Positions 8,803-63,363 of a DNA stretch of 64,000 nt are shown here, one piece after another. The notes beneath the pieces are model-generated. The model worked only from the letters and a program-made list of their open reading frames with translations. It made no database searches and was not told the origin of the DNA. This DNA comes from Vampirovibrionales bacterium (lineage in GTDB: Bacteria > Cyanobacteriota > Vampirovibrionia > Vampirovibrionales > Vampirovibrionaceae). The translations under genes were made by a program, and so were the position numbers. Positions within the stretch are counted from its first letter, which is position 1. Every line of letters starts with the position of its first letter. Where the stretch lies: positions 1,997,184 to 2,061,183 of the forward strand of contig JADJRF010000005.1 of the NCBI GenBank assembly GCA_016712355.1, in the 5' to 3' direction.

Positions 8803-9873
8803 ATGCCTCTGTTTTTGACCTCGCCCGCCCGAACCTGCTCCGCCGTCGCCCTTGCGCTGACGGTCCTTCTCGCTGGCAGCGCCGCGAGCTGGGCCAGATC
8901 CAAAGCGCCAAGCCTGCCCCAGCGGAGTTTTCTGCCGCCGGTGGCCGCCATTAACCCTATTGTTGACCCCAATGCCTCGACGAATCCTGACGCGGGCGAG
9001 TTGGGGCCGGTGACGCTCTCGGCAGTCAGCACGCCGCTGCTAAAAGTAGGCGCGCGCATCACAAAACTGGATAACGATCTGGGGATTCGCGCCTCGGACA
9101 AGGATTTCCAGACCCTGTTGACGTTGCAGCGCGCAGCCGACGACGCCGATTTAAAATCTTTATGGGACTCGACGGTCGAAAAAAACCCCGTCATCCGCTT
9201 TTCGCTGGAGAAGCTGGCTTCGCCTGACGATCTGCACGGCAAACAGTCCAGCCTGTTTATGCGCAAGACGCTCAACGTGCTGATTTCCGGCGCGACTATC
9301 GCCGCGACGATGATGCCCGGCGCGGGGACGTATCGCAATATGGGCGCAATGGCAGGCGGCGACGCGCTGCGTAACCTCTCTTCTGGAAAAGTCGTCCCGC
9401 CGGAGAATATGCTCAGCCCCACCGAGAAAATTCAGCTCGCCGGTATGGTCGATGAGCTTCAGGGCAAGGTGATCGGCTCCTATCACGACTACAAGAACAC
9501 CCTGCAATCGCTGATTCTGTCCCGTCAGACGACGGAGCGGCATCATACGGCCTATGCCAACGCGCTCAAAACCCATAGCGATATGGCGATTCTGGCCTCA
9601 GGCAGCGCCTACTATAAAGCCCTGATGGCGGAAAGCGCCCTGCGTAATCGCGCCAAGCTCTATCGTCTGGAGCTGGAGCGTCTGGCGGGGGCTGACACCG
9701 TAGACGGGCTTCAGCTTTCGGTCGCCTACACCCACGATCTGCTCGAAGAATCACGGGTAAAATCCGCCGCAAGCAAGCCTGATGCGGCGCAAACAGCCGC
9801 GCTTCCTGTCCAGACGCCTGCGCCCGCTGCGGCGGCGGCTGCCGCGCCCAAGCCCAACGCCTCGTTGCGATAG
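8803..9873 (+). CDS. Secreted hypothetical protein (signal peptide)
   Basis: N-terminal hydrophobic signal-like segment. C-terminal region is paralogous to the next gene (LWDSTVEKNPVIRFSLEKL / VDELQGKVIGSYHDYKNTLQSL). Confidence 0.5.
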   Translation: MPLFLTSPARTCSAVALALTVLLAGSAASWARSKAPSLPQRSFLPPVAAINPIVDPNASTNPDAGELGPVTLSAVSTPLLKVGARITKLDNDLGIRASDKDFQTLLTLQRAADDADLKSLWDSTVEKNPVIRFSLEKLASPDDLHGKQSSLFMRKTLNVLISGATIAATMMPGAGTYRNMGAMAGGDALRNLSSGKVVPPENMLSPTEKIQLAGMVDELQGKVIGSYHDYKNTLQSLILSRQTTERHHTAYANALKTHSDMAILASGSAYYKALMAESALRNRAKLYRLELERLAGADTVDGLQLSVAYTHDLLEESRVKSAASKPDAAQTAALPVQTPAPAAAAAAAPKPNASLR

Positions 9874-47059: not shown

Positions 47060-47592
47060 AATCGTTGCAGAAAGCGGCTCTGCGCTGTTTCCATCGCAAA
47101 CAAAAGCTTTGGAGCGAATCGCCGTCGCAGGCGATCGCGAAACGAGCGAATGACAAGGGATTTTGACGTTCTGGAATCGCGATCGCCTTGTAATAGAATG
47201 CGAAAGGATAGATTCTGGCATCGTCATCGTCATGGTCGCAAAAAAGCATGCGGATTATAGCGCAAAGACGCGCGGGCTGTGTCCTGTGGACGGCAAGGCG
47301 GTTTTATACCGGCGGGTTTGCGCAGGGGAGCCGGGGTGATATATCGTTATTACCGCCATTTCATCGCCTTCCTGTCGGTTTTATATTGAAAGAAGGCCTA
47401 TATCATCATGCTAATTGGCGCAAAAAGAATGTAACGTTCCCGTGGATCGCGCGCAATTTCCATTTTAAGAATGTTTTTATTTTTTTATAAGACAGTCACG
47501 CCCCCATGCTGTCTCAGGCTCATATCGCAATGACACAGGTCTCTCGGTTCGTCGCGACCGCCGATCGCCTCGAATCCAAAGGAGGAGCATTC

Positions 47593-47790
47593 ATGGCCAA
47601 GGTTTTAATCTCAATGCGCGAGGATTTCCTGACCCGGATTGATGAAATCGCTTCAACCGAGCAACGGACGCGGAGCGAGCTGATTCGGCAGGCCTTGCGC
47701 GAGTATATTCGCCGTAAACGCAAGCTTTCCAACGCCAAATACGCCCAGAACGCCGAACTGATTGAATCCCTACTGCTGGAACTTGAATAA
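47593..47790 (+). CDS. Ribbon-helix-helix (CopG/MetJ-type) DNA-binding protein
   Basis: KVLISMREDFLTRIDEIASTEQRTRSELIRQALREYI is a beta-alpha-alpha RHH signature. GGAGGA RBS precedes the ATG. Confidence 0.55.
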   Translation: MAKVLISMREDFLTRIDEIASTEQRTRSELIRQALREYIRRKRKLSNAKYAQNAELIESLLLELE

Positions 47791-47823
47791 TCCCACTCAC
47801 GCCCTTCCCAAGGAGATCCGGTC

Positions 47824-47991
47824 ATGTCCAAAAGTTCTCGAGTGCTGATTTCGTTGCCAGACAAGTTTTTAGAGGAAGTCGACCTGCTGGCCGAAGAAGA
47901 GCAGCGCTCTCGCAGCGAACTGATTCGGGAAGCCCTGCGGCTGTATATTCGCAGCAGCGACCCCGGTCGCGAGTCGCCGTCGGTCAACTAA
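47824..47991 (+). CDS. Second RHH (CopG-type) protein, paralog of the upstream gene (55 aa)
   Basis: RVLISLPDKFLEEVDLLAEEEQRSRSELIREALRLYI. AAGGAG RBS. Below the track length cutoff. Confidence 0.5.
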   Translation: MSKSSRVLISLPDKFLEEVDLLAEEEQRSRSELIREALRLYIRSSDPGRESPSVN

Positions 47992-52232: not shown

Positions 52233-52377
52233 CAGAGAGAGGCGAGCGCCGCTACAGGCGTATGGGTGCGTCGGCGCTCTTTTTCGCAGACGTGACGCAC
52301 GTGACGAGTCGGGAGGACGCCCTTCGTTGGACTGGGGTCATGACACAATCCAGTGGCTCAGCGCCCAGCGCTGGTTC

Positions 52378-53331
52378 ATGCGGGTGAATTGGCGTCAACT
52401 GGGGCAGTTGGCCTTTCTGGCGCTCGGCGTTCTCTACCTTTATATGCGCTTTATCCGCGGCAGCCAGGCGGAGCAGTTATTCAAGGGGCTGTTTGTCATT
52501 CTCATTGGCTTTCTGGGCCTGTATATTCTGGCGGATTATTTTAATCTGGCGCTGATTGGCGCGGCGCTTGGCTTTGGGATTCAGATTCTGAGCGTGGCCC
52601 TGATTGTGATTTTTCAGCCGGAATTGCGGCGGATGCTGTTGTTTCTGGGGCAACCCGACCTGTTTGGCGAGCGCAGCCTGACGGCGCCCGCCCAGGAGCG
52701 GCTGGAGCGCAAGTCGGAGTACCTGATCGACACGCTGACCGAGGCCGTGCGCTTCCTGAGCAAGTCGCGCACCGGCGCCCTGATTGTGCTGGAGTCTGAG
52801 AACGATGCGGGAAGCCACTATCTGGAGGCGGGCGCCCGGCTCGACGCGCGCCTGAGCGCCGAAGCGCTGCTGACGATTTTTCATCCCAAGACGCCGCTGC
52901 ACGACGGCGCGGTGATTATTACGCCCGGCAACCGGATTGCCGCCGCCGGCGTTCTACTGCCCCTGACCGAGGATCCCAAGCTAAGCTGGCAGTTTGGCAC
53001 CCGTCACCGCGCCGCCATCGGCCTGACGGAAGTCTGCGACAGCTATTGCGTCGTGGTTTCCGAGGAAAGCGGGACGATTTCCATCGCCCACAAAGGCAAG
53101 CTCGAGAAAATGACAGGCGCTGACGAGCTTAAAAAGCGTCTGGAGAAGATTTACCACGTCCATGCCGACCGAAAGCGCGACGCCAAAGAGGGGACGCGCT
53201 CCTCGCTGGCCGCCGGACGCGACGACGAGGCGGCTTCAGACCGATTTTCGGATCAACTCCGCCATCTTTTCGCCCACCGCGCGCCGCGCCGCCTGCGCCG
53301 CCTGATCGTCCGCAACCCCGACCGCCGCTAG
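52378..53331 (+). CDS. cdaA: Diadenylate cyclase (c-di-AMP synthase) CdaA
   Basis: Three N-terminal TM helices, then a DisA_N domain with DGA(VII) and GTRHRAA motifs. Confidence 0.85.
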   Translation: MRVNWRQLGQLAFLALGVLYLYMRFIRGSQAEQLFKGLFVILIGFLGLYILADYFNLALIGAALGFGIQILSVALIVIFQPELRRMLLFLGQPDLFGERSLTAPAQERLERKSEYLIDTLTEAVRFLSKSRTGALIVLESENDAGSHYLEAGARLDARLSAEALLTIFHPKTPLHDGAVIITPGNRIAAAGVLLPLTEDPKLSWQFGTRHRAAIGLTEVCDSYCVVVSEESGTISIAHKGKLEKMTGADELKKRLEKIYHVHADRKRDAKEGTRSSLAAGRDDEAASDRFSDQLRHLFAHRAPRRLRRLIVRNPDRR

Positions 53332-53347
53332 ACCCCGGAGCCAGAAC

Positions 53348-53386
53348 CCCAGCGCCCGTTTCGCCCCGCGACGACGGGCGTTGGCG
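53348..53386. repeat. GC-rich hairpin repeat, copy 1 (cgcccgt-14 nt-acgggcg)
   Basis: 39/41 nt identical to copy 2 at 53838..53876. Confidence 0.8.
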
Positions 53387-53487
53387 TAAGCGCGAACGGC
53401 TTCAGAAACCCAAGGTTGTCATATTGTTATTGTCGTAGTATATTCAACGCGTCTGACAGTCCTACGCCCCCCCAAGGAGATTCCCCC

Positions 53488-53814
53488 ATGCAAGTCCGCT
53501 TTGGCAAAATTTCTTATGAGCCGCCAAAAAAGAGTAAGGAAATAGAACACCAAGTCACACTTCCGGTGAGCTTATTTCTGAACCCGCAACAAGCCCAAAA
53601 ACTTGGTGGGGAGGAAAAGTACCTCTATATAACCGGAAAAGACGCTAAAGGGCTTATCAAAACCGTTAAAGAGCTTGAAAGTGAGTTTCAAAGTTCGAAA
53701 AACAATCCAAATCCTAAAAAGATAAAGAAGGCTATTGTTTGTGGTCTAGGACCCACATTTAATAAGATTGAAAAATTTATCCGCAAAAACCCGCCTCACA
53801 AAGCAGGCAAGTAA
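53488..53814 (+). CDS. Small low-GC hypothetical protein (108 aa), VRFGKI-family cassette gene 1
   Basis: AAGGAG RBS. N-terminus MQVRFGKISY. Lys-rich. Strongly AT-rich coding sequence relative to the flanks. Confidence 0.55.
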   Translation: MQVRFGKISYEPPKKSKEIEHQVTLPVSLFLNPQQAQKLGGEEKYLYITGKDAKGLIKTVKELESEFQSSKNNPNPKKIKKAIVCGLGPTFNKIEKFIRKNPPHKAGK

Positions 53815-53837
53815 CGCACACCCCCGGATTTCCACAA

Positions 53838-53876
53838 CCCCCACGCCCGTTTCGCCCCGCGATGACGGGCGTTGGC
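53838..53876. repeat. GC-rich hairpin repeat, copy 2
   Basis: cccccacgcccgtttcgccccgcgatgacgggcgttggc. Confidence 0.8.
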
Positions 53877-53975
53877 TTTAATGCAGCACACTCAAATAGG
53901 CTGAATATTGCGCTTGCAGGGAAGTTATAGTCGTAGTAGATTTAAATCCGGTTCGCGACAGAAGGATTTCACCCC

Positions 53976-54377
53976 ATGGACTCGATGAACGTTCGCTTTG
54001 GTAAGATTGGGTATACATACCGCAAAGGCACTCGCAATGTAGACAGAGTAGACGCTGGGCTTATTTTACCGGCAGACATGCTGAGAGCGCTTGGTTGCGA
54101 GCGCAAACGTGAACTCTACCTGACGGGTGACGACCGAAAAGCCTGGCGGGCCACTGAAAGCGTCGCTGTTCTTAAAGCGCACGCCAACCACCATCTTACC
54201 GATCCGAGGCAGGCCCAGCATATTCTGACGAACGTACTGCCGCAAATTGGCGAACGCTTTAAACAACTGCAAGCAGACGTCGCAAACTTTATCGAGACAG
54301 CCCCCTATAACCCTGAGCGTCTCGAAAAAACGATTGACGGACGTAAAACTTACTGGTCGTGGGAGGCTAACGCTTAA
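53976..54377 (+). CDS. Small hypothetical protein (133 aa), VRFGKI-family cassette gene 2
   Basis: AAGGAT RBS. N-terminus MDSMNVRFGKIGY. The stop overlaps the truB stop convergently. Confidence 0.55.
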   Translation: MDSMNVRFGKIGYTYRKGTRNVDRVDAGLILPADMLRALGCERKRELYLTGDDRKAWRATESVAVLKAHANHHLTDPRQAQHILTNVLPQIGERFKQLQADVANFIETAPYNPERLEKTIDGRKTYWSWEANA

Positions 54378-55309
54378 GGGCTCCCGGCGAAGGCTTTTTC
54401 GGGGCGGAGCTTGCGGTCGCGCCAACGGGCGACGGCGATCAGGCGATGCTCGAAGGTAAGCGCGCACAGGTCTTTGTCCTTGAGCGCGCGTAATGGCGCG
54501 GGCAACGCGTCGGCGTCCAGCGGCATCCCCTGAAGCAGGCGCGTTGCGGCGAGGGCGTCGGGTAACTCCCACTGAGGCAAGGCCAGATAAGGCAAAGGAT
54601 CGCGCAGAAAGTCACAAGGGCTGGCGGACTCGCGAAGCGCGGCCAGCGTGACGGAATCGGGCAAGAGGAAACGGCCGTGACGGGTTCGGGTCAGAGCGGC
54701 CAGCACAGCCCCGCAACCCAACGACTCGCCCAGATCGCGGGCGATGGCGCGCATAAAGGCCCCCGACCCGCAGGTAACGTCAATGACGGCTTGCGGACGG
54801 CCATCGTCGCCCAGCGTCAGGGCGTGAAGCGACAAGGACTTTAAATCGACCGTCTTGACGCGATCATCAATCGGGCGACCTTCGCGCGCCCACTGGTAGA
54901 GCTTCTTCCCGTCGACCCGCTTGGCGGAATAGGCTGGAATCCGCTGCTCGATCACGCCCGTCATGGCGAGTAAGGCCGCCTGAAGCGGGGCTTCGCTCAC
55001 GGCGGCCTGCGCCTGCTGGGCAGAAGCGCTGGCGTGGACTTCGCCCTCGCAATCGAGCGTGTCGCTCTCCAGACCGAAGACGACGCGCAGGCGGTAGGCC
55101 TTGTCGCTGTCCACATACTCGATAAGCCGCGCGGCAGGGCCGAGAAAGACCGGCAGGACGCCATCCGCCATCGGGTCGAGGGTGCCCGCATGGCCCACGC
55201 GCTTGAGACCAAAGACGCGGCGCACGGCGCTTACGACGTCGTGGCTGGTGATGCCGACAGGTTTATGGACGTTCAGGACAGCGAACACGCGCAACAGGCG
55301 CCTCATCAA
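54374..55309 (-). CDS. truB: tRNA pseudouridine(55) synthase
   Basis: VLNVHKPVGITSHDVV, HAGTLDPMADGVLPV (catalytic Asp), and a PUA-like C-terminus. Confidence 0.85.
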   Translation of the reverse strand: MMRRLLRVFAVLNVHKPVGITSHDVVSAVRRVFGLKRVGHAGTLDPMADGVLPVFLGPAARLIEYVDSDKAYRLRVVFGLESDTLDCEGEVHASASAQQAQAAVSEAPLQAALLAMTGVIEQRIPAYSAKRVDGKKLYQWAREGRPIDDRVKTVDLKSLSLHALTLGDDGRPQAVIDVTCGSGAFMRAIARDLGESLGCGAVLAALTRTRHGRFLLPDSVTLAALRESASPCDFLRDPLPYLALPQWELPDALAATRLLQGMPLDADALPAPLRALKDKDLCALTFEHRLIAVARWRDRKLRPEKAFAGSP

Positions 55310-55389: not shown

Positions 55390-55465
55390 GCGGGCGTAGC
55401 TCAGCTGGCAGAGCGAAAGCTTCCCAAGCTTTAGGTCGCGAGTTCGATCCTCGTCGCCCGCTCCA
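55390..55465 (+). tRNA. tRNA-Gly (anticodon CCC)
   Basis: Manual cloverleaf fold: acceptor gcgggcg/cgcccgc, D-arm gctc..gagc, anticodon arm aaagc-ttCCCaa-gcttt, T-arm gcgag-ttcgatc-ctcgt, discriminator U plus CCA. Confidence 0.8.
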
Positions 55466-55560
55466 ACGCCTGAAGACGCAAGAGGCTTTCAGAGAGGGGA
55501 GTCCGCTTTGCTGCCGCGTGGGGGGCATGGTTGATTTTTGTTTCAATTTTCAAAAAACGA

Positions 55561-55589
55561 TTGATTTTTGTCACGAAATTCAATAGAAT
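55561..55589 (+). promoter_or_regulatory. Candidate sigma70-like promoter (TTGATT-17 nt-TAGAAT) upstream of hicA, with an 11-bp direct repeat (ttgatttttgt at 55531 and 55561)
   Basis: Spacing is exactly 17 nt. The repeat overlaps the -35 box. Confidence 0.4.
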
Positions 55590-55628
55590 GAAAATAAGGG
55601 CCTTTAAAACCCGATGCCATTTAAGCCC

Positions 55629-55832
55629 ATGAAATTGCGAGATTACTTGCGCTGGATCGGCCAATATGGCTGGTCGCTTAAAAAATCGGGTGTGGATTGG
55701 TCGCTGATAAACGCTGAAGGCCGTCGCGTGATTCTCAATATCATTGTGACCCATCCTGGCCGCGAAGTGATTCCGGCCAGCGTGAAGAGAACGTCTCAGG
55801 CCCTTGAGGCAGAAGGGTTCTCGCAGGACTAG
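55629..55832 (+). CDS. hicA: HicA-like (YcfA/HicA family) mRNA interferase toxin
   Basis: MKLRDYLRWIGQYGW...HPGREVIPASVKRTSQALEAEG matches the HicA profile (KxxExxxxLxxxGW ... H ... I ... kqaG). About 68 aa. Confidence 0.5.
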   Translation: MKLRDYLRWIGQYGWSLKKSGVDWSLINAEGRRVILNIIVTHPGREVIPASVKRTSQALEAEGFSQD

Positions 55833-55860
55833 CCCCTCTCGTCAAGGAGGAATCGCCGGT

Positions 55861-56232
55861 ATGGTTGAGTTGGATCGCCATTTTGACATGGCCCGCGCGG
55901 AAGTCGACGGCGTACAACCGCAGTGGTCGCCGGAGGATCAGATGTATCTGGTCGAGCATCCCGCCTATCCAATGGTGATGCACGCCGACCCGGACCCGGA
56001 GAAGGCCCTGACCGGATATTTCCGGGCCCTGCGGCAATTTGTGAAATACCGACTGGCGGGCGAAATCGCCGATACGACCGAACAGGCGACCTCGGGTCGC
56101 GGCGGCGCGCGAGAAGGGGCCGGACGCCCCCGCAAAAATGAGACCAAAACCGTTCGCCTGCCCGTGGATATGGCCGACTGGCTGCGGGATCAGAAGCATC
56201 AGGACCAGGTGCGGCGCTTGATGCAGGGCTGA
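55861..56232 (+). CDS. hicB: HicB-like antitoxin (N-terminal HicB fold + C-terminal RHH-like DNA-binding tail)
   Basis: AAGGAGG RBS. YLVEHPAYPMVMHADPDPEKALTGYFRALRQFV matches the HicB N-domain pattern. C-terminal GRPRKNETKTVRLPVDMADWL. Confidence 0.5.
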   Translation: MVELDRHFDMARAEVDGVQPQWSPEDQMYLVEHPAYPMVMHADPDPEKALTGYFRALRQFVKYRLAGEIADTTEQATSGRGGAREGAGRPRKNETKTVRLPVDMADWLRDQKHQDQVRRLMQG

Positions 56233-57901: not shown

Positions 57902-58708
57902 CTAAGGCGGATGACGGCTGTCATCGGCGTAGCGCTTGGGTTCTGGCTGTTCTTGCGCCAGTCGAAACGTCTCTATCACGCGGCGATCGCGCGCGCTGGG
58001 TCCCGTAACCGGCTGAATAGGCGCGCGTTCTGGCCGTGGCAAGTCGCCTTCGCTTTGTGGCGGGACGATTCGCCAGCCCGGCGGCGGCTGTAAGGCGCGT
58101 GCCACATCGTCGAGGCGCTCGGGACTGATATCGGGATCGCGCCACCAGCCCTCATAGTTGACGCCGCCCCATTCCGGGTTGCTCAGCAGAATGCGCTGAC
58201 GCCGAAGCAGGTCAATCCAGCGCAGGCGCGGAAAATTCGGCGTTCGCTCCCGCACCGCGCGCGGATTGGGCGCAGGCTCGCCCCATTGCGCGCACAGCAG
58301 CTCGCCATCGTCTTGCGCCGCGCGTGGGCGCGTGGGGCGGGCGGGGTCGTCGCTCTCCGTCATCGGCGCGTCCAGACTGCGCAGCGCCCAGTCGGAGGGC
58401 TTGGGCTGCGGTGGATGCTTTGGCTGGAGCATCGTCAGCAGGCGATCGATGAGATTAATGGCGCTTTCGGTCGGGGTTTGCGGCTCGACGCCCGAAAGGG
58501 TCCGGTTAACGTCGCGGCGCATGCGGCGCGCCATCAGCGCCGGAAACCAGTATTTATGAAAATAACTCGCCCACGCGCGGACCTTCTCCTGAGAATCTGC
58601 GTACAGGGCGTCCATCAGGGTGCTGAACAACCCGACATTGGTTAGCAGCGCCATAAAAAACGGCGCATACCGATAGGAGGACCTTCGCGCCCACATGGTC
58701 GTCGTCAA
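57902..58708 (-). CDS. Hypothetical protein
   Basis: Long ORF with native GC composition. No recognisable motifs. Confidence 0.4.
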   Translation of the reverse strand: MTTTMWARRSSYRYAPFFMALLTNVGLFSTLMDALYADSQEKVRAWASYFHKYWFPALMARRMRRDVNRTLSGVEPQTPTESAINLIDRLLTMLQPKHPPQPKPSDWALRSLDAPMTESDDPARPTRPRAAQDDGELLCAQWGEPAPNPRAVRERTPNFPRLRWIDLLRRQRILLSNPEWGGVNYEGWWRDPDISPERLDDVARALQPPPGWRIVPPQSEGDLPRPERAPIQPVTGPSARDRRVIETFRLAQEQPEPKRYADDSRHPP

Positions 58709-58978
58709 GACCCCTCAGAAAACGTGTAACACCTTGGAAAGCCGTATTCAGATATACGAAGTATAGCATTTTTGATTAGCGCTGTCTAGTGTTTTTTTAA
58801 AATTTCGTGTGAATTTCAGGAGGGGGCATTCGTTTGTTCTGGAGGGCGGCGGGGTGAGGCGCGTTCGTCTTGCGACGAGTGGCTTTGAAACGGACAGGCA
58901 ATTTCGCCCGCGTCCTGGTTTAATTTACAGGAGCCCCCATTGTTTACTTTTATCAACAAGCCTTCGGAGTCTTCCCCC

Positions 58979-59356
58979 ATGGTTTCCATCAACCGATTCT
59001 CACCGCCGCCGGCTGCCAGCCCCCGTTTTGGCATGGCCTTCACGCCGGAAGCACAGGTACACCACGAGGCTAATAAGAAAATAGGAAAGGTTGTAATCGC
59101 GCTTGACGCTTTAAAAGACCCTAATTCCGAAATTTCTAATGCATTATTAGGACCCTTTAATGGCTGGAATGAAAGGGATCGCTCAACGCTTGATAAAGCT
59201 ATTAACACTTGGGCAAAAAGTAAGGATATTGTGAGTTTAATAGGGGTAATCCAGAAATTGAATTCAGCAGAGGCTATCATCCCTGATGAAATCATCATGC
59301 CCTTAAATAAGATTCATGCCAAAAAGCTCAAATCCAAAGAGCTTTATCAAATATAA
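58979..59356 (+). CDS. Small low-GC hypothetical protein (125 aa), MVSI..FSP..PRFGM-family gene 1
   Basis: N-terminal 20 codons nearly identical at DNA level to the 60380 gene. Alternative TTG start at 58940 is preceded by AGGAG. Confidence 0.5.
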   Translation: MVSINRFSPPPAASPRFGMAFTPEAQVHHEANKKIGKVVIALDALKDPNSEISNALLGPFNGWNERDRSTLDKAINTWAKSKDIVSLIGVIQKLNSAEAIIPDEIIMPLNKIHAKKLKSKELYQI

Positions 59357-59756
59357 TATTTATATAAAAATCTCTTGGCTTTTCACAAAATCCTTCCCTC
59401 TGAGTCTCATCAGCGCGCGGGTTTCCCTTTTGGAGGGACACCCGCGCCGCCGGAGGGGGCGGATTTGCCATTCGGATTATATTATAGTGCTTAAATGAAA
59501 GAAGCGTTCGTACCAGCAAGAGATACGGCTCTAGCATCAAAAGCGCCATTTGGATAAGCGCGAATTTTTGACTCGCGCCGCGTGACTTCCAGGCGAAAAG
59601 CACACTGATAACCGGCGCAAGCAGAATACTGAAGCCGAATACCGCCAGATAAATTCCGTGCCATGGCGGATCCAAGGCGGACGAATCAAAATGAAACGGA
59701 ATCAACACGAGCCGGATCGCGATACAGATGGCGTTGAAAATCAGAAGTTTATGCAT
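59328..59756 (-). CDS. Small 3-TM membrane protein (paralog of 59800..60078)
   Basis: MHKLLIFNAICIAIRLVL..PPWH..YLAVFGFSIL. AT-rich. Confidence 0.5.
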   Translation of the reverse strand: MHKLLIFNAICIAIRLVLIPFHFDSSALDPPWHGIYLAVFGFSILLAPVISVLFAWKSRGASQKFALIQMALLMLEPYLLLVRTLLSFKHYNIIRMANPPPPAARVSLQKGNPRADETQREGFCEKPRDFYINIIFDKALWI

Positions 59757-59799
59757 CGGACGCTTACCGGGGCTTTGAGCGATTCATCGGTTACGCGAA

Positions 59800-60078
59800 T
59801 TAGTCGTAGAGCCTGAATGAAAGAAAGGCGCGAAAAAACCAGAAATAAGGCTCGGCAATCAAGAACGCCATTTGGAGAATGGCTAATTTTTGATTCCTGC
59901 CGTCTGACTTCCAGGCAACAATCAAACTGACCGCCGCGCTAAACAGAATACTGAAGCCGACTGCCAGCAGATAAAGCTGATGCCACGGCGGAGCAAAATC
60001 CGAACCATCGAATAAAAACGCCCCCAACACAAGCCGGATCGCGATACAGATGGCGCTAGAAATCAGAAGTTTCTGCAT
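59800..60078 (-). CDS. Small 3-TM membrane protein (paralog of 59328..59756)
   Basis: MQKLLISSAICIAIRLVL..PPWHQLYLLAVGFSIL. The track ORF extends upstream into the repeat but without conservation. Confidence 0.5.
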   Translation of the reverse strand: MQKLLISSAICIAIRLVLGAFLFDGSDFAPPWHQLYLLAVGFSILFSAAVSLIVAWKSDGRNQKLAILQMAFLIAEPYFWFFRAFLSFRLYD

Positions 60079-60171
60079 GAGACTCTCACAGAGGGTCAAA
60101 CAGGCATTATACAACGCCTGTCTTCGACAATCCGTGCCGGATTGAGCCGCCTGCCTCACGCCCCACGGGGA

Positions 60172-60308
60172 GCCGCGCGCGCCGGAATGCGCCTTTACGG
60201 CGCGTGGGTCTCGGCGGTTTTTTGCAGGGCCGCCCACGCCAGAGGCGGCGGGCAGGTCGCGCCGGGCGCGGGTTTCAGGCGCAGCCAGAGGACGCGCGGC
60301 TTTACAAG
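60172..60308 (-). pseudogene. Start-less fragment homologous to the 3' end (last ~45 codons) of the pseudopilin gene 62416..63363, copy A
   Basis: The minus strand translates to ...LWLRLKPAPGATCPPPLAWAALQKTAETHAP*, matching ...IWLRLKPAPGATYPPRLAWAALQKTAEAPPLE*. Confidence 0.7.
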
Positions 60309-60379
60309 GGGACGTATTTTGATTACGATTGTCGTTTTCCTACACGTGTAACCGTTCTACTGTTCAGGAGGAATCTCTC

Positions 60380-60760
60380 ATGGTCTCCATCCGCCCATTC
60401 TCACCAGCCACGCCTCGTTTTGGGATGACCATGCCCGCCAAAGACGACAGAGAACGCTATGAGTTGGAAACAGTCCATGATCTCTTAGACGAGCTCAGAA
60501 ATATCCAACAGGATTTACCTCCGCAACCTGAGCACGAATCACCGTTAATAGATGCGGCTCAAATATTGCAGAAGTCTAAAAATAAGGGTTTTAAAAGAAC
60601 CCTTAAGACTGCCCTAACTGGATTTGCCCAGCCTTATCTACCCAATGAATTATTAAAATTATTATATAATTTGAAACAACTAGATTATTCAGTCCCCCAT
60701 TCTATCCTCAAGCCGATACTTAAGGTGTATAGAAAGAAGCTTGAATCGGGGGAACATTAA
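60380..60760 (+). CDS. Small low-GC hypothetical protein (126 aa), MVSI..FSP..PRFGM-family gene 2
   Basis: AGGAGG RBS 8 nt upstream of the ATG. N-terminus MVSIRPFSPATPRFGM. Confidence 0.55.
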   Translation: MVSIRPFSPATPRFGMTMPAKDDRERYELETVHDLLDELRNIQQDLPPQPEHESPLIDAAQILQKSKNKGFKRTLKTALTGFAQPYLPNELLKLLYNLKQLDYSVPHSILKPILKVYRKKLESGEH

Positions 60761-60773
60761 TAAAAGGAGTGTC

Positions 60774-60910
60774 GCCGCGCGCGCCGGAATACGATTCTAC
60801 GGCGCGTGGGACTCGGCGGTTTTTTGCAGGGCCGCCCACGCCAGAGGCGGCGGGCAGGTCGAGCCGGGCGCGGGTTTCAGGCGCAGCCAGAGGACGCGCG
60901 GCTTTACAAG
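60774..60910 (-). pseudogene. Pseudopilin 3'-end fragment, copy B (about 95% identical to copy A over about 135 bp)
   Basis: Same orientation as copy A and as the intact gene 3' end. Confidence 0.7.
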
Positions 60911-61012
60911 CGGGTGGGTTAAACGGCACTTGCATTTTGACTATAAGCGTAACAAACATCCCTGAAAACATACGATTGGGCGCCGGCGTCACACGAGTCG
61001 TATAATGGGAAG

Positions 61013-61363
61013 ATGCTGTATTACATTGCAAAATTAGGCCTCTCGGCCGCTCTGATTCTGGCCGTCAGTGAAATTGCCAAACGGTCGCCATTGCTTGGCG
61101 CCATAGTCGCCTCTCTCCCCCTGCTCTCTGTGCTGGCCATGATTTGGCTTTATCAGGAAACAAAAAATCCACAGGCGATTGCGACGCTTTCTTATTCAAT
61201 TTTCTGGATGGTTATTCCTTCTCTGGTTCTCTTTATTTCACTTCCCGAATTCCTCAAGAAGGATGTTCCGTTTTATCCGGCCTTATTATTTTCCAGTATA
61301 TTAACTGTTCTGGCTTATTTCCTGATGATATTTCTTCTTTCCAAAATAGGGACGAGAATATAA
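61013..61363 (+). CDS. Small 4-TM membrane protein (hypothetical)
   Basis: 116 aa, hydrophobic, AT-rich. Confidence 0.45.
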   Translation: MLYYIAKLGLSAALILAVSEIAKRSPLLGAIVASLPLLSVLAMIWLYQETKNPQAIATLSYSIFWMVIPSLVLFISLPEFLKKDVPFYPALLFSSILTVLAYFLMIFLLSKIGTRI

Positions 61364-61530
61364 AAGCGAATTTCTGATCCGGACAGACCGGGCAAAGCCG
61401 TGCCGGATTGATCCGCCTGCCTCCATGCGTCACGCCGCACAGGCAGTCATGCGGCGGCGGACGATCGCCTGTAGGGGGCGGGACTGGATTTGCGCCTCTC
61501 CAGAGGCGATTTCAGGGGCGGGGTCAGGCG

Positions 61531-62316
61531 TCAGCGTAAGGGGAGCATGATGTTTCCGCCTCCCTTGCCGACCACCACGGTCGTGGGCGAGACCCCGTTC
61601 CACTTTTTAACGATGTCTAACTCGATCACCTGCGGCGATGACTTCAGGGCCTGCCCCTTGATTTGGACGGCCTTGGCTTCCGCCTCGGCGTTGACCAACG
61701 TGATTTCCGCGTCTTTTTTGGCCTTATCCAATTCGTAGCGTTTGGCTAAAGCTTCTTGCTCCTTGATCTGCTTTTGTTCGATGGCATGCTCGAGATCATC
61801 GCTGAGATCGATATTGGCAATGGGAATATCCTGCACCACCAGCAGGCCATCTACTTTATGGCTGACCTTTTCCATGACGTTTCTTTTGACGGCCTCGCGA
61901 TTCTTGACCAGATCTTCAGCGCGGTAATTAGCGCTTTCTTCTTTGAGGCTTTCCTGAATCCGGGGCTCTAATAAAGATTGGTAGGGATCGCCCTGATATT
62001 TCTGAAACAGTTCGACGACTTTATTTTCCGGGATGCGGTAAAGCGCCTGGAAATCGACCTGCACGGTCTGCAAGTCGCTACTAAAGCAAGCTGCCTTTCC
62101 GCTAACCGTAATTTGCTTAATCGGGACCCGGACAATCTCTTCGATAAAGGGCATTTTAAGACTGAAGCCTTCGCGCCGAAAATGCCGGTCCACCGATCCC
62201 AGCGTCACGCTAATCCCGCGATATCCCGGCGGAATAATCGTAAAACACTGCTGAAACAGGAAAATCCCAACAAGGCTGAGCCCCAGAAGCGTCCAAACCT
62301 TGGCGGCAACCGGCAT
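61531..62316 (-). CDS. SPFH/band-7 (prohibitin/HflC-like) membrane protein
   Basis: N-terminal TM, SPFH core, and a C-terminal coiled-coil EQKQIKEQEALAKRYELDKAKKDAEI. Confidence 0.65.
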   Translation of the reverse strand: MPVAAKVWTLLGLSLVGIFLFQQCFTIIPPGYRGISVTLGSVDRHFRREGFSLKMPFIEEIVRVPIKQITVSGKAACFSSDLQTVQVDFQALYRIPENKVVELFQKYQGDPYQSLLEPRIQESLKEESANYRAEDLVKNREAVKRNVMEKVSHKVDGLLVVQDIPIANIDLSDDLEHAIEQKQIKEQEALAKRYELDKAKKDAEITLVNAEAEAKAVQIKGQALKSSPQVIELDIVKKWNGVSPTTVVVGKGGGNIMLPLR

Positions 62317-62415
62317 TTTTGACGAGAAAACGGGGAGGCGGGAGAACGTCATCTGGCGGGTTCCTTTCAGTGGGGGCGTCTGTCTTTATTTAGGCGTAAC
62401 GCCCCGCCCACGGCA

Positions 62416-63363
62416 TCATTCAAGTGGTGGGGCCTCGGCGGTTTTTTGCAGGGCCGCCCACGCCAGACGCGGCGGATAGGTCGCGCCGGGCGCGGGTTTC
62501 AGGCGCAGCCAGATGACAGCGCCTGACGGGCTCGCCAGCGGCTGAACCTCGTAGGTCTGCGCCCAGGCGGCGTAAGGCTGCGCGCCCGGCGCGGCCATCG
62601 CGTCCAGAGCCCCGCGATCGACGCCGTTGATGATCACCCGCATCGCGCGCATGCCGCGCCGGGCCAAGGGGTCGCCCTCGGCAACGCCCAGCGTTAAACG
62701 ATAACGGGCCTGCGCCGAGGCGGGGAATCCGTAGGCCAGCTCCGGCGCTTCCTCGCCGTCTGCAAACAGAATGGGGTCGGGCGTCTGCGCGATGTCGCGG
62801 CGCAGGACGTAGCGCGCGGGCGTCAAGCCGGACAGCCATCCGCCGCGACGATCGCCGGGCTTCCACGTAAAAGGCTGGCGCGACGGGGACCACGTACGAC
62901 CGGCCGCGTCGCGGTAATAAGCGGCGGGCGCGCCGAGATTCCAGCCGCGAAAGTCGGGAGCGATGTCGCGGCTCATCTGCATCAGGGGGGCGCGGCCCTT
63001 GATGTCGCGATACAGCGTCAGACGCGCCACCCAGCGATCGGCGCGACGCGGATCGCTCCAGATCTCGCGGCGATAGAACAGAGGCGAACGGTCCGGCAAA
63101 AAGACGGCCTTGATCTGCGGCGAGCCGTAAGCGGCCTGCATCGCGGGATGGGCGGCGTTGGGCTCGTGAATCAGCGCGCTGGCGGCGGCGGCCTGGAACT
63201 GCTGGCGCGCGCTCTCGCGCAGACGGGCCTCTGAACGCTCCAGCATCAGAAACAGAATGGCCGTCGCGATGGCGAAAAACGTCAGCGCGGCCATCGTTTC
63301 AACCAGCGACCAGCCCCGCGACGCGGCGGATGTCGAGAAGAAAGGCGGACGCTTAGCGTTCAT
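62416..63363 (-). CDS. Pseudopilin/minor pilin-like protein with prepilin-type N-terminal cleavage/methylation motif
   Basis: ...SRG|WSLVETMAALTFFAIATAILFLML matches the G-[FW]-[TS]-L-[IV]-E prepilin signature. Start at MNAKRPPFF (63363). Confidence 0.6.
   Translation of the reverse strand: MNAKRPPFFSTSAASRGWSLVETMAALTFFAIATAILFLMLERSEARLRESARQQFQAAAASALIHEPNAAHPAMQAAYGSPQIKAVFLPDRSPLFYRREIWSDPRRADRWVARLTLYRDIKGRAPLMQMSRDIAPDFRGWNLGAPAAYYRDAAGRTWSPSRQPFTWKPGDRRGGWLSGLTPARYVLRRDIAQTPDPILFADGEEAPELAYGFPASAQARYRLTLGVAEGDPLARRGMRAMRVIINGVDRGALDAMAAPGAQPYAAWAQTYEVQPLASPSGAVIWLRLKPAPGATYPPRLAWAALQKTAEAPPLE

Follow-up and report, generated by a model that had tools for sequence, protein, structure and literature searches.

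A small orphan gene, probably duplicated in tandem, with a terminator-like hairpin ahead of each copy in the cdaA-truB interval of a Vampirovibrionales bacterium

The genes and sequence elements considered in this study lie in a 64-kb stretch of the genome of a Vampirovibrionales bacterium (hereafter the window, 64,000 nucleotides in all). They are listed below in the order of their positions.

52327..53331, plus strand: cdaA, diadenylate cyclase (PF02457 DAC, E 9.2e-40), the upstream neighbour, of native GC content
53341..53385, plus strand: hairpin repeat, copy 1; stem-loop at 53349-53384 with 16 pairs, one bulge, and a CCC loop
53416..53444, plus strand: sigma-70-like promoter of ORF1, TTGTCA-17-TATATT, 10/12 matches to consensus
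53474..53479, plus strand: Shine-Dalgarno site of ORF1, AAGGAG, 8 nt ahead of the ATG
53488..53814, plus strand: ORF1, 108 aa, Lys-rich, pI 9.9, GC 0.40 (NCBI MBK8190929.1, hypothetical protein IPK79_10820)
53832..53876, plus strand: hairpin repeat, copy 2; stem-loop at 53840-53875 with 15 pairs
53914..53942, plus strand: promoter position of ORF2, TTGCAG-17-TAGATT, 7/12 matches to consensus, in register with the ORF1 promoter
53962..53966, plus strand: Shine-Dalgarno site of ORF2, AAGGA, 9 nt ahead of the ATG
53976..54377, plus strand: ORF2, 133 aa, Arg-rich, pI 9.3, GC 0.52 (NCBI MBK8190930.1, hypothetical protein IPK79_10825)
54374..55309, minus strand: truB (PF01509, E 1.2e-37), convergent with ORF2
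55390..55465, plus strand: tRNA-Gly(CCC), beyond truB and not adjacent to the low-GC stretch

The product of cdaA is 100% identical to a protein of a Vampirovibrionales metagenome-assembled genome at NCBI, where it is named TIGR00159 family protein and where both ORF1 and ORF2 are annotated as hypothetical proteins. Immediately after cdaA the sequence becomes AT-rich, as a preliminary description of this DNA had noted, with a GC content of 0.37-0.54 across 53400-54300 versus 0.60-0.72 in the flanks. The same is seen at third codon positions, where the GC content is 0.40 in ORF1 and 0.54 in ORF2 versus 0.73-0.78 in lysA, cdaA, truB, and a DEAD-box gene. At its far end ORF2 runs into truB, the two stop codons overlapping in the tetranucleotide TTAA (54374-54377). 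A tRNA gene, pointed out earlier as lying close by, is indeed present, but truB, which has native composition, lies between, and thus the tRNA gene does not border the low-GC stretch. This tRNA was the only Rfam match at the gathering score, and a permissive Rfam scan of the region returned just two matches, both sub-threshold.

The low-GC stretch contains two units of common architecture, that is, a hairpin, a sigma-70-like promoter, a Shine-Dalgarno site, and a small ORF. The hairpin forms part of a GC-rich direct repeat (sequence pattern GCCCGTTTCGCCCCGCGAYGACGGGC), whose two copies are identical at 41 of 45 positions; two copies occur in the window, versus none expected by chance. The repeat and its hairpin had been reported before as 39 bp with a stem of 7-8 bp; both are real, but the repeat extends over 45 nt and the stem over 15-16 bp. 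The folding energies of copies 1 and 2 are -34.3 and -23.8 kcal/mol, respectively, in 66-nt folds (z about -3.1). Downstream of the hairpins, the units share conserved promoter blocks at 53426-53447, with the GTCGTAGTA motif, and at 53924-53945. This motif, initially taken for a leader element, is found in both units, but it is not free-standing: it falls within the spacer and the -10 hexamer of the sigma-70-like promoter. Within the window, the form GTTATWGTCGTAGTAKATT is confined to two sites, 53426-53444 and 53924-53942. The ORF1 promoter has the top score among the sites in 44-64 kb, tied with three others, and the ORF2 promoter, weak by consensus and under the threshold of the promoter scan, was read from the sequence and from the in-register alignment of the units. 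The ribosome-binding sites lie within conserved blocks at 53474-53490 and 53962-53978.

The shared N-terminus of the two proteins was also correctly observed at the outset: ORF1 starts with MQVRFGKISY, and ORF2 starts with MDSMNVRFGKIGY, its paralogous segment MNVRFGKIGY beginning at 53985. Beyond this segment the proteins were thought to diverge completely, but BLASTP aligns them at 37% identity over 60 residues (E 1e-8), a score reached by none of 2000 shuffles; the similarity of the C-terminal halves alone is not significant (97 of 2000 shuffles). ORF1 is Lys-rich, as described (20 Lys and two Arg residues, pI 9.89), but ORF2 is not acidic or neutral, having 13 Arg, eight Lys, and 17 Asp and Glu residues and a pI of 9.33. 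The low-confidence AlphaFold models of both proteins show one order of elements: three N-terminal strands, the third of them preceded by a short helix, and then a pair of long helices.

The two units lie next to each other on the same strand and are homologous in register, coding sequence included. The distance between corresponding elements is 491 nt for the hairpin, 498 nt for the promoter block, 488 nt for the ribosome-binding site, 497 nt for the N-terminal codons, and 489 nt for an internal coding block. Both copies bear the mark of coding constraint: the identity between ORF1 and ORF2 is 0.45, 0.61, and 0.29 at the first, second, and third codon positions, respectively, ten of 22 conserved residues are encoded by different codons, and pS is 0.79 (saturated) versus pN of 0.49. 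Since the third codon positions are saturated, the duplication should be old. Along the unit, identity forms a mosaic, with 91% in the hairpin, 30% in the spacer between hairpin and promoter, 73% in the promoter block (19 of 22 positions in its core), 46% in the 5' untranslated region, 76% in the VRFGKI codons, and 33-46% in the rest of the coding sequence.

We consider it likely that a small lineage-specific ("orphan") gene, probably acquired from outside, was long ago duplicated in tandem to give this locus. The duplicated unit of about 490 bp would comprise the GC-rich hairpin, a sigma-70-type promoter, a Shine-Dalgarno site, and the ORF, and both copies are predicted from sequence to be real, separately transcribed protein-coding genes. 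Their products would be small basic proteins that share an N-terminal strand-strand-helix-strand domain of some 60 residues and continue with a pair of long helices. The hairpin may end or insulate the upstream transcript, leaving each copy to be driven by its own promoter. The proteins could bind nucleic acid, possibly via an AbrB/MazE-like domain, and might regulate their own promoters through the conserved block of spacer and -10 hexamer; the clues to both are faint. Thus the most likely description is that of a duplicated orphan gene, a possible DNA-binding regulator, accompanied by a terminator-like hairpin. The function of the proteins is without support from any family or fold match.

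No homologs of ORF1 or ORF2 were found among about 15 billion proteins, nor in collections of genomes, metagenomes, viruses, phages, or plasmids. For instance, a word-indexed search with each ORF against 5.8 billion proteins returned nothing beyond the locus itself, and when 1.84 billion representatives were searched in full with an HMMER profile, the sole extra match was a spurious fibronectin-type repeat protein. Pattern and tblastn scans of genome, metagenome, and viral contig collections likewise recovered only the locus itself, and tblastn against phages and plasmids yielded no homolog; a lone plasmid match (E 0.01) lay under a cytochrome b6 gene and was taken as chance. Neither ORF matched a family in Pfam, PHROGs, PADLOC, or NCBIfam, and no relevant PDB sequence emerged from a profile search. 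In the relatives L083 and L003, whose CdaA proteins are 78% and 58% identical, respectively, the lysA-cdaA pair is kept, other genes follow downstream, and ORF1 and ORF2 are absent. The locus is carried by two assemblies, each with the same two copies. Among the source samples, it is present in the sequencing runs SRR11674035 and SRR11673978.

Lineage-specific AT-rich ORFans of bacteria, the subject of work by Daubin and Ochman in 2004, have reportedly been ascribed in many cases to phages or to foreign DNA of another kind. ORF1 and ORF2 resemble them in being short, AT-rich relative to the host (GC3 of 0.40 and 0.54 versus about 0.75), homolog-less, missing from the nearest relatives, and located at a break of synteny. 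What sets them apart is that they have been kept long enough to be duplicated and to diverge to 37% identity under purifying selection, with their cis elements conserved. Such long retention, together with the duplication, the purifying selection, and the conserved cis elements, argues for a retained function and not for transient junk DNA. The atypical composition named in the initial proposal of a horizontally acquired module is confirmed, the stretch is confined to this lineage, and the gene order breaks here relative to the relatives, but the notion of a mobile cassette family is not supported.

The role of the hairpin is suggested by its position. Hairpin-only ("I-shaped") terminators, hairpins stabilizing 3' ends, and REP elements are located downstream of stop codons. 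Similarly, the GC-rich stems of 15-16 bp start 18 nt past the cdaA stop codon (copy 1) and 26 nt past that of ORF1 (copy 2). The locus differs from these hairpin classes in having two known copies, no U-tract, and a sequence conserved beyond pairing. As in a canonical intrinsic terminator, a GC-rich stem-loop stands just after a stop codon, but the stem is not followed by a U-tract, the tails reading TTGGCGTAAG and TTGGCTTTAA. A terminator scan of 53200-54500 called no terminator-like site; canonical terminators in this genome barely exceed chance (34 versus 24.5 +/- 5.4 in shuffles). Each hairpin comes straight after a stop codon, that of cdaA in the one case and that of ORF1 in the other, and its most likely role is that of a factor-independent terminator, a transcript 3' end, or an insulator. 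A terminator requires structure and not sequence, hence this function alone fails to explain the 91% identity of the copies. With the background at 0.46, the chance of 41 identities in 45 positions is 2e-10, and the 30% identity of the adjoining spacers implies that the hairpin is either constrained or homogenized by gene conversion, that is, either recognized by sequence or kept uniform via short-tract conversion.

Several other readings of the locus have to be weighed against a duplication. The conservation of the hairpin beside 30% identical spacers could be accounted for if the 45-nt palindrome were a small REP- or MITE-like mobile element that reached the two intergenic regions by separate, later insertions. 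The genome does carry dispersed GC-rich repeats, as evidenced by another intergenic family in the window, of about 140 nt and in three copies, inside a low-GC island. However, both hairpins have the same orientation and the same position in the unit, 31 and 38 nt ahead of the -35 hexamer, which is expected under co-duplication and unlikely for two independent insertions. Moreover, the window contains just the two copies and the public collections that were searched contain none, and we regard such insertions as rather improbable. A cassette array, as put forward in the preliminary description, might be integron-like or of a new kind, with the hairpin as a single-strand recombination site separating independently captured ORFs. 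A hairpin repeat at each ORF boundary, AT-rich cargo, and strain-restricted genes agree with this, and, as in integron cassettes with attC sites, an imperfect palindrome bounds small tandem ORFs. Yet both supposed cargoes, including their promoters and ribosome-binding sites, are paralogs that align in register, a sign of duplication and not of capture: the units represent one gene in duplicate, each under a promoter of its own, and not varied cargo. Known attC sites are 57-141 nt long, have RYYYAAC and GTTRRRY cores, and accompany unrelated promoterless cargo. In contrast, the hairpin measures 37 nt and its 3' arm, GTTGGCG or GTTGGCT, does not fit GTTRRRY, intI and attI/Pc are absent from the locus, and no hairpin is present 3' of ORF2. 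Neither the genes called at 45.5-57.1 kb nor the ORFs from a scan of 48-63.5 kb contained an integrase or transposase domain, so that the flanks contain no recognizable recombinase for about 8 kb upstream and 9 kb downstream. The hairpin has no further copy in the window (of a 2.55-Mb genome), in 82 loci of relatives, or in metagenome and viral collections, and both locus-bearing assemblies have two copies. With no recombinase recognized in these flanks, a hairpin found nowhere else in these searches, and units copied from one gene, a cassette array is unsupported; this reading is largely refuted and very improbable. An IS200/IS605-like element with a similar hairpin at either end was rejected because the units remain homologous through promoter, ribosome-binding site, and 60 codons and because a transposase is missing. 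With just two repeat copies, 491 nt apart, type III toxin-antitoxin repeats and CRISPR were rejected as well. Finally, the ORFs might be chance openings in non-coding AT-rich DNA, as the absence of homologs and domain matches, the low AlphaFold confidence, and the ORF lengths would allow; length is not decisive alone, since 14% and 3.4% of shuffles of the stretch reach 108 and 133 aa, respectively. This is scarcely credible given the gradient of conservation over codon positions, the synonymous changes at conserved residues, the correctly spaced promoter and Shine-Dalgarno site in both units, and the significant similarity of the proteins.

An alternative that concerns function rather than origin is that ORF1 and ORF2 are swapped-hairpin DNA-binding dimers of the AbrB/MazE type, lacking a toxin and repressing their own promoters. 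The hairpin would then be a double-stranded operator and not an RNA element, self-repression acting via the conserved palindrome, the conserved block of the promoter spacer, or both. Like members of the SpoVT/AbrB/MazE family (PF04014; AbrB, MazE, VapB2), both proteins are basic and have a predicted small N-terminal strand-strand-helix-strand domain with a "hhhP...hR.LG" helix motif, then a hydrophobic strand and "DD.K", and they give a weak but non-random profile match. In this match, obtained with hhalign for the ORF pair against nine verified PF04014 members and carried mostly by ORF2, residues 27-59 of ORF2 (AGLILPADMLRALGCERKRELYLTGDDRKAWRA) align to residues 14-46 of AbrB; the alignment is weak (score 17, P 0.004, probability 8%), though none of 300 column shuffles was as good. 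In that register, a strand predicted at residues 22-30, a helix at 33-39, and a strand at 46-52 coincide with beta2, alpha, and beta3 of AbrB. The first two strands of the proteins are joined by a Lys/Arg-rich loop, and the conserved DNA block spans the promoter spacer plus the -10 hexamer, as expected of an operator. In this family, four strands form two hairpins that interleave as a homodimeric barrel, and accepted members share just 15-22% identity (PMC3326315). Nevertheless, ORF1 and ORF2 differ from the family in that 9-12 extra residues separate strands 1 and 2, in the fourth strand, which is not predicted, and in an unrelated C-terminal part of two helices. The PF04014 model matched neither protein even at E<=1 (the gathering score not being reached), an in-house HMM of the nine members gave about 0 bits, and structure searches with the low-confidence models returned no AbrB-like fold. 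Type II antitoxins of the MazE/VapB type are co-transcribed with a toxin gene right beside them, whereas the two genes have no adjacent partner toxin gene: the neighbours are cdaA and truB, and each ORF has a promoter to itself. We consider this assignment possible, if doubtful. It is a much bolder conjecture, to which we give a low probability, that ORF1 and ORF2 found an as yet unseen family of swapped-hairpin-like nucleic-acid-binding proteins, with the 45-nt hairpin as their DNA or RNA target, and that such an autoregulated unit multiplies by duplication in Vampirovibrionales.

The duplicated orphan gene provides a clean example of a foreign-looking gene that a member of the Vampirovibrionia, a non-photosynthetic group that is sister to the cyanobacteria, has retained and duplicated and that has stayed under purifying selection. 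The remaining puzzle is the 45-nt hairpin at 91% identity, whose neutral surroundings have been randomized. Should the proteins bind the hairpin, the locus would represent both a new family of small regulators and the site that they target; otherwise the proteins are two more hypothetical ones, and the importance of the locus beyond this genome is small.

Among the other genes of the window, the ORFs past tRNA-Gly appeared HicA/HicB-like by eye, which was unsupported by searches of Pfam, NCBIfam, PADLOC, and PDB sequences. A second duplicated low-GC island with GC-rich repeats of its own lies at 58.7-62.5 kb and hints at a recurrence of such hairpin-promoter-gene units.

The gap between cdaA and truB is occupied by two small genes on the same strand, ORF1 and ORF2, each forming a unit with the hairpin repeat, predicted promoter and Shine-Dalgarno site that precede it (units 1 and 2, respectively). 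The locus is an orphan gene that has been duplicated and retained, and both copies are already annotated, each as a hypothetical protein.

52327-53331, forward strand: cdaA (PF02457, E 9e-40)
53341-53385: 45-nt hairpin repeat, copy 1; stem-loop 53349-53384 (16 pairs, one bulged base, CCC loop)
53416-53444, forward strand: predicted ORF1 promoter, TTGTCA-17-TATATT, near-consensus (10/12 positions)
53488-53814, forward strand: ORF1, 108 aa, N-terminus MQVRFGKISY; MBK8190929.1 (IPK79_10820), "hypothetical protein" in NCBI
53832-53876: 45-nt hairpin repeat, copy 2; stem-loop 53840-53875 (15 pairs)
53914-53942, forward strand: putative ORF2 promoter, TTGCAG-17-TAGATT, at the equivalent position and weaker than that of unit 1
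53976-54377, forward strand: ORF2, 133 aa, N-terminus MDSMNVRFGKIGY; MBK8190930.1 (IPK79_10825), "hypothetical protein" in NCBI
54374-55309, reverse strand: truB (PF01509, E 1e-37)
55390-55465: tRNA-Gly(CCC)

The GC content falls from 0.60-0.72 to 0.37-0.54 at ~53400-54300, which confirms the drop after cdaA noticed in the preliminary description, and the pair is foreign-looking in composition, with GC3 of 0.40 (ORF1) and 0.54 (ORF2) versus 0.73-0.78 in the comparison genes. ORF2 and truB are convergent, and their stop codons overlap in the palindrome TTAA (54374-54377), leaving no intergenic space or terminator between them; at this point GC steps sharply from ~0.52 to 0.66.

Sequence comparison shows that units 1 and 2 arose from a single gene by tandem duplication. 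The unit-to-unit spacing is 491 nt for the hairpin, 498 for the promoter, 488 for the ribosome-binding site, 497 for the N-terminal codons, and 489 for an internal coding block, and thus the blocks are in register. The proteins had been said to diverge completely after the common N-terminal stretch VRFGKI, but they are 37% identical over 60 residues (BLASTP, E 1e-8), with a score reached by none of 2000 shuffles; the C-terminal halves, compared alone, show no significant similarity. Nor is one of them acidic or neutral, as both are basic (pI 9.9 for ORF1 and 9.3 for ORF2). Apart from these two errors of description, the original observation is real.

In 56 aligned codons, the first, second, and third positions have identities of 0.45, 0.61, and 0.29, 10 of the 22 conserved residues are encoded by differing codons, and synonymous differences reach a proportion of 0.79 (saturated) versus 0.49 for non-synonymous ones. 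This codon-position pattern, together with the saturated synonymous sites, argues for an old duplication and purifying selection on the coding sequence, that is, for two real protein-coding genes separated long ago. Basic residues are mainly lysine in ORF1 (20 Lys, 2 Arg) and arginine in ORF2 (8 Lys, 13 Arg), which tracks the GC content of the genes (0.40 versus 0.52); ORF2, the truB-side copy, appears further adjusted toward the host GC content. AlphaFold models of both proteins are of low confidence (pLDDT 59 for ORF1 and 50 for ORF2) and have a common order of elements, namely strand, strand, short helix, strand, and two long helices. The proposed relation to AbrB/MazE is weakly supported and unproven.

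Identity between the units is a mosaic: 91% in the hairpin, 30% in the hairpin-to-promoter spacer, 73% in the promoter block, 46% in the 5'UTR, 76% in the VRFGKI codons, and 33-46% in the other coding sequence. The GTCGTAGTA motif is indeed conserved, as part of a 19-22 nt block present in both units (53426-53447 and 53924-53945); in unit 1 this block covers the spacer and -10 hexamer of the predicted sigma-70-type promoter, whose score is joint top within 44-64 kb. The start codons are preceded by AAGGAG at 8 nt (ORF1) and AAGGA at 9 nt (ORF2).

The GC-rich direct repeat before each ORF was likewise borne out (41/45 identical). It folds with energies of -34.3 (copy 1) and -23.8 kcal/mol (copy 2), z ~ -3.1 relative to shuffles, and occurs exactly twice in the 64-kb window, against a chance expectation of none. 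Against the saturated background (P of the 41/45 identities in the hairpin is 2e-10, given background identity of 0.46), neither the hairpin nor the promoter block is a neutral leftover; both reflect either sequence-level constraint or short-tract gene conversion. The hairpin starts 18 nt past the cdaA stop codon in copy 1 and 26 nt past the ORF1 stop codon in copy 2, and lies 31 and 38 nt, respectively, before the next -35 hexamer. The 7-bp difference favors a structure whose position is not critical, such as a terminator or 3'-end hairpin, over an upstream operator that depends on phase. No U-tract follows the hairpin, but canonical terminators show little enrichment in this genome (34, versus 24.5 +/- 5.4 in shuffles). 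The one curious feature of the locus is that the hairpin sequence, and not just its pairing, is kept; either a protein, possibly ORF1 or ORF2, recognizes it or gene conversion maintains it, and two copies cannot separate these candidates.

The locus had been interpreted as a cassette array or mobile module, with a nearby tRNA as part of the signature. The features defining an integron-type array were looked for and not found: no integrase or transposase domain occurs among the genes called or scanned at 45.5-63.5 kb, and the hairpin, 37 nt long, lacks the core motifs by which attC sites are defined. Moreover, each unit has its own predicted promoter, the "cargo" ORFs are paralogs of one another, and truB, of native composition, separates the tRNA from the low-GC stretch, which is therefore not bordered by it. 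A cassette or mobile-module interpretation is thus not supported. If a REP-like palindrome had inserted independently into the two spacers, the high hairpin identity would be accounted for; this is unlikely, since both hairpins have the same orientation and the same position within the unit. We propose instead that a small gene of foreign origin, carrying its own promoter, settled beside cdaA and that a tandem duplication of ~490 bp followed; the duplicated unit would have taken in the hairpin located after the preceding stop codon.

A Logan contig of run SRR11674035 has the same sequence as the window, and its CdaA, ORF1, and ORF2 are listed in NCBI under a Vampirovibrionales MAG (2.55-Mb contig). 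A second assembly (SRR11673978, a Logan contig of 1403 nt) has the same two units, with eight single indels and no substitutions; the indels, which truncate the ORFs to 82 and 119 aa, are most likely assembly or sequencing errors rather than a strain difference. Variation in copy number, envisaged in the preliminary description, is not visible in these two assemblies. No relatives of either protein were found in any collection searched, tblastn of both gave no match in the 82 fetched loci of relatives, and the hairpin is absent from these loci and from metagenome and viral collections. The nearest available relatives, with CdaA identity of 78% (Logan DRR438490) and 58% (MAG OFTM381), keep the lysA-cdaA pair and have other genes downstream, yajQ with the ATP synthase operon and unrelated ORFs, respectively. 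Hence the pair is confined to this lineage and sits at a synteny break. In DRR438490, cdaA and the convergent yajQ are just 22 nt apart (9027-9052 of the fetched locus), and the spacer starts with GCTCGCCCGTTGGGGC, recalling the 5' arm of the window hairpin, GCGCCCGTTTCGCCCC; this likeness could be a remnant or chance.

Other low-GC spots also carry small genes. An islet at 55470-56232, immediately 3' of tRNA-Gly(CCC), contains two overlapping ORFs, and a larger island with its own tandem duplication (58700-62535, minimum GC 0.35) includes the four listed below.

55614-55832: first islet ORF, 72 aa, MBK8190932.1, hypothetical
55804-56232: second islet ORF
58940-59356 and 60329-60760, forward strand: small ORFs with common MVSI..FSP..PRFGM N-termini
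59328-59756 and 59800-60237, reverse strand: paralogous membrane-protein ORFs (288-nt repeat, 73% identical)
60129-60157 and 61395-61423: 29-nt repeat
60172-60311, 60774-60913 (95%), and 62396-62535 (70%): ~140-nt GC-rich repeat

By eye, the islet ORFs look like a toxin of HicA type and an antitoxin whose C-terminus recalls a ribbon-helix-helix, a likeness for which searches of Pfam, NCBIfam, PADLOC, and PDB sequences gave no support. None of the four island ORFs has a Pfam match. The island thus shows that this genome has more than one case of AT-rich orphan genes that are duplicated and interspersed with GC-rich repeats. Finally, two adjacent small genes at ~47593-47991 (2106-2504 of the fetched locus L002), adjoining a short low-GC patch (47201-47600) and encoding proteins of 65 and 55 aa, both have the ribbon-helix-helix domain PF01402 in precomputed annotation, and could be a further duplicated pair of small regulators.
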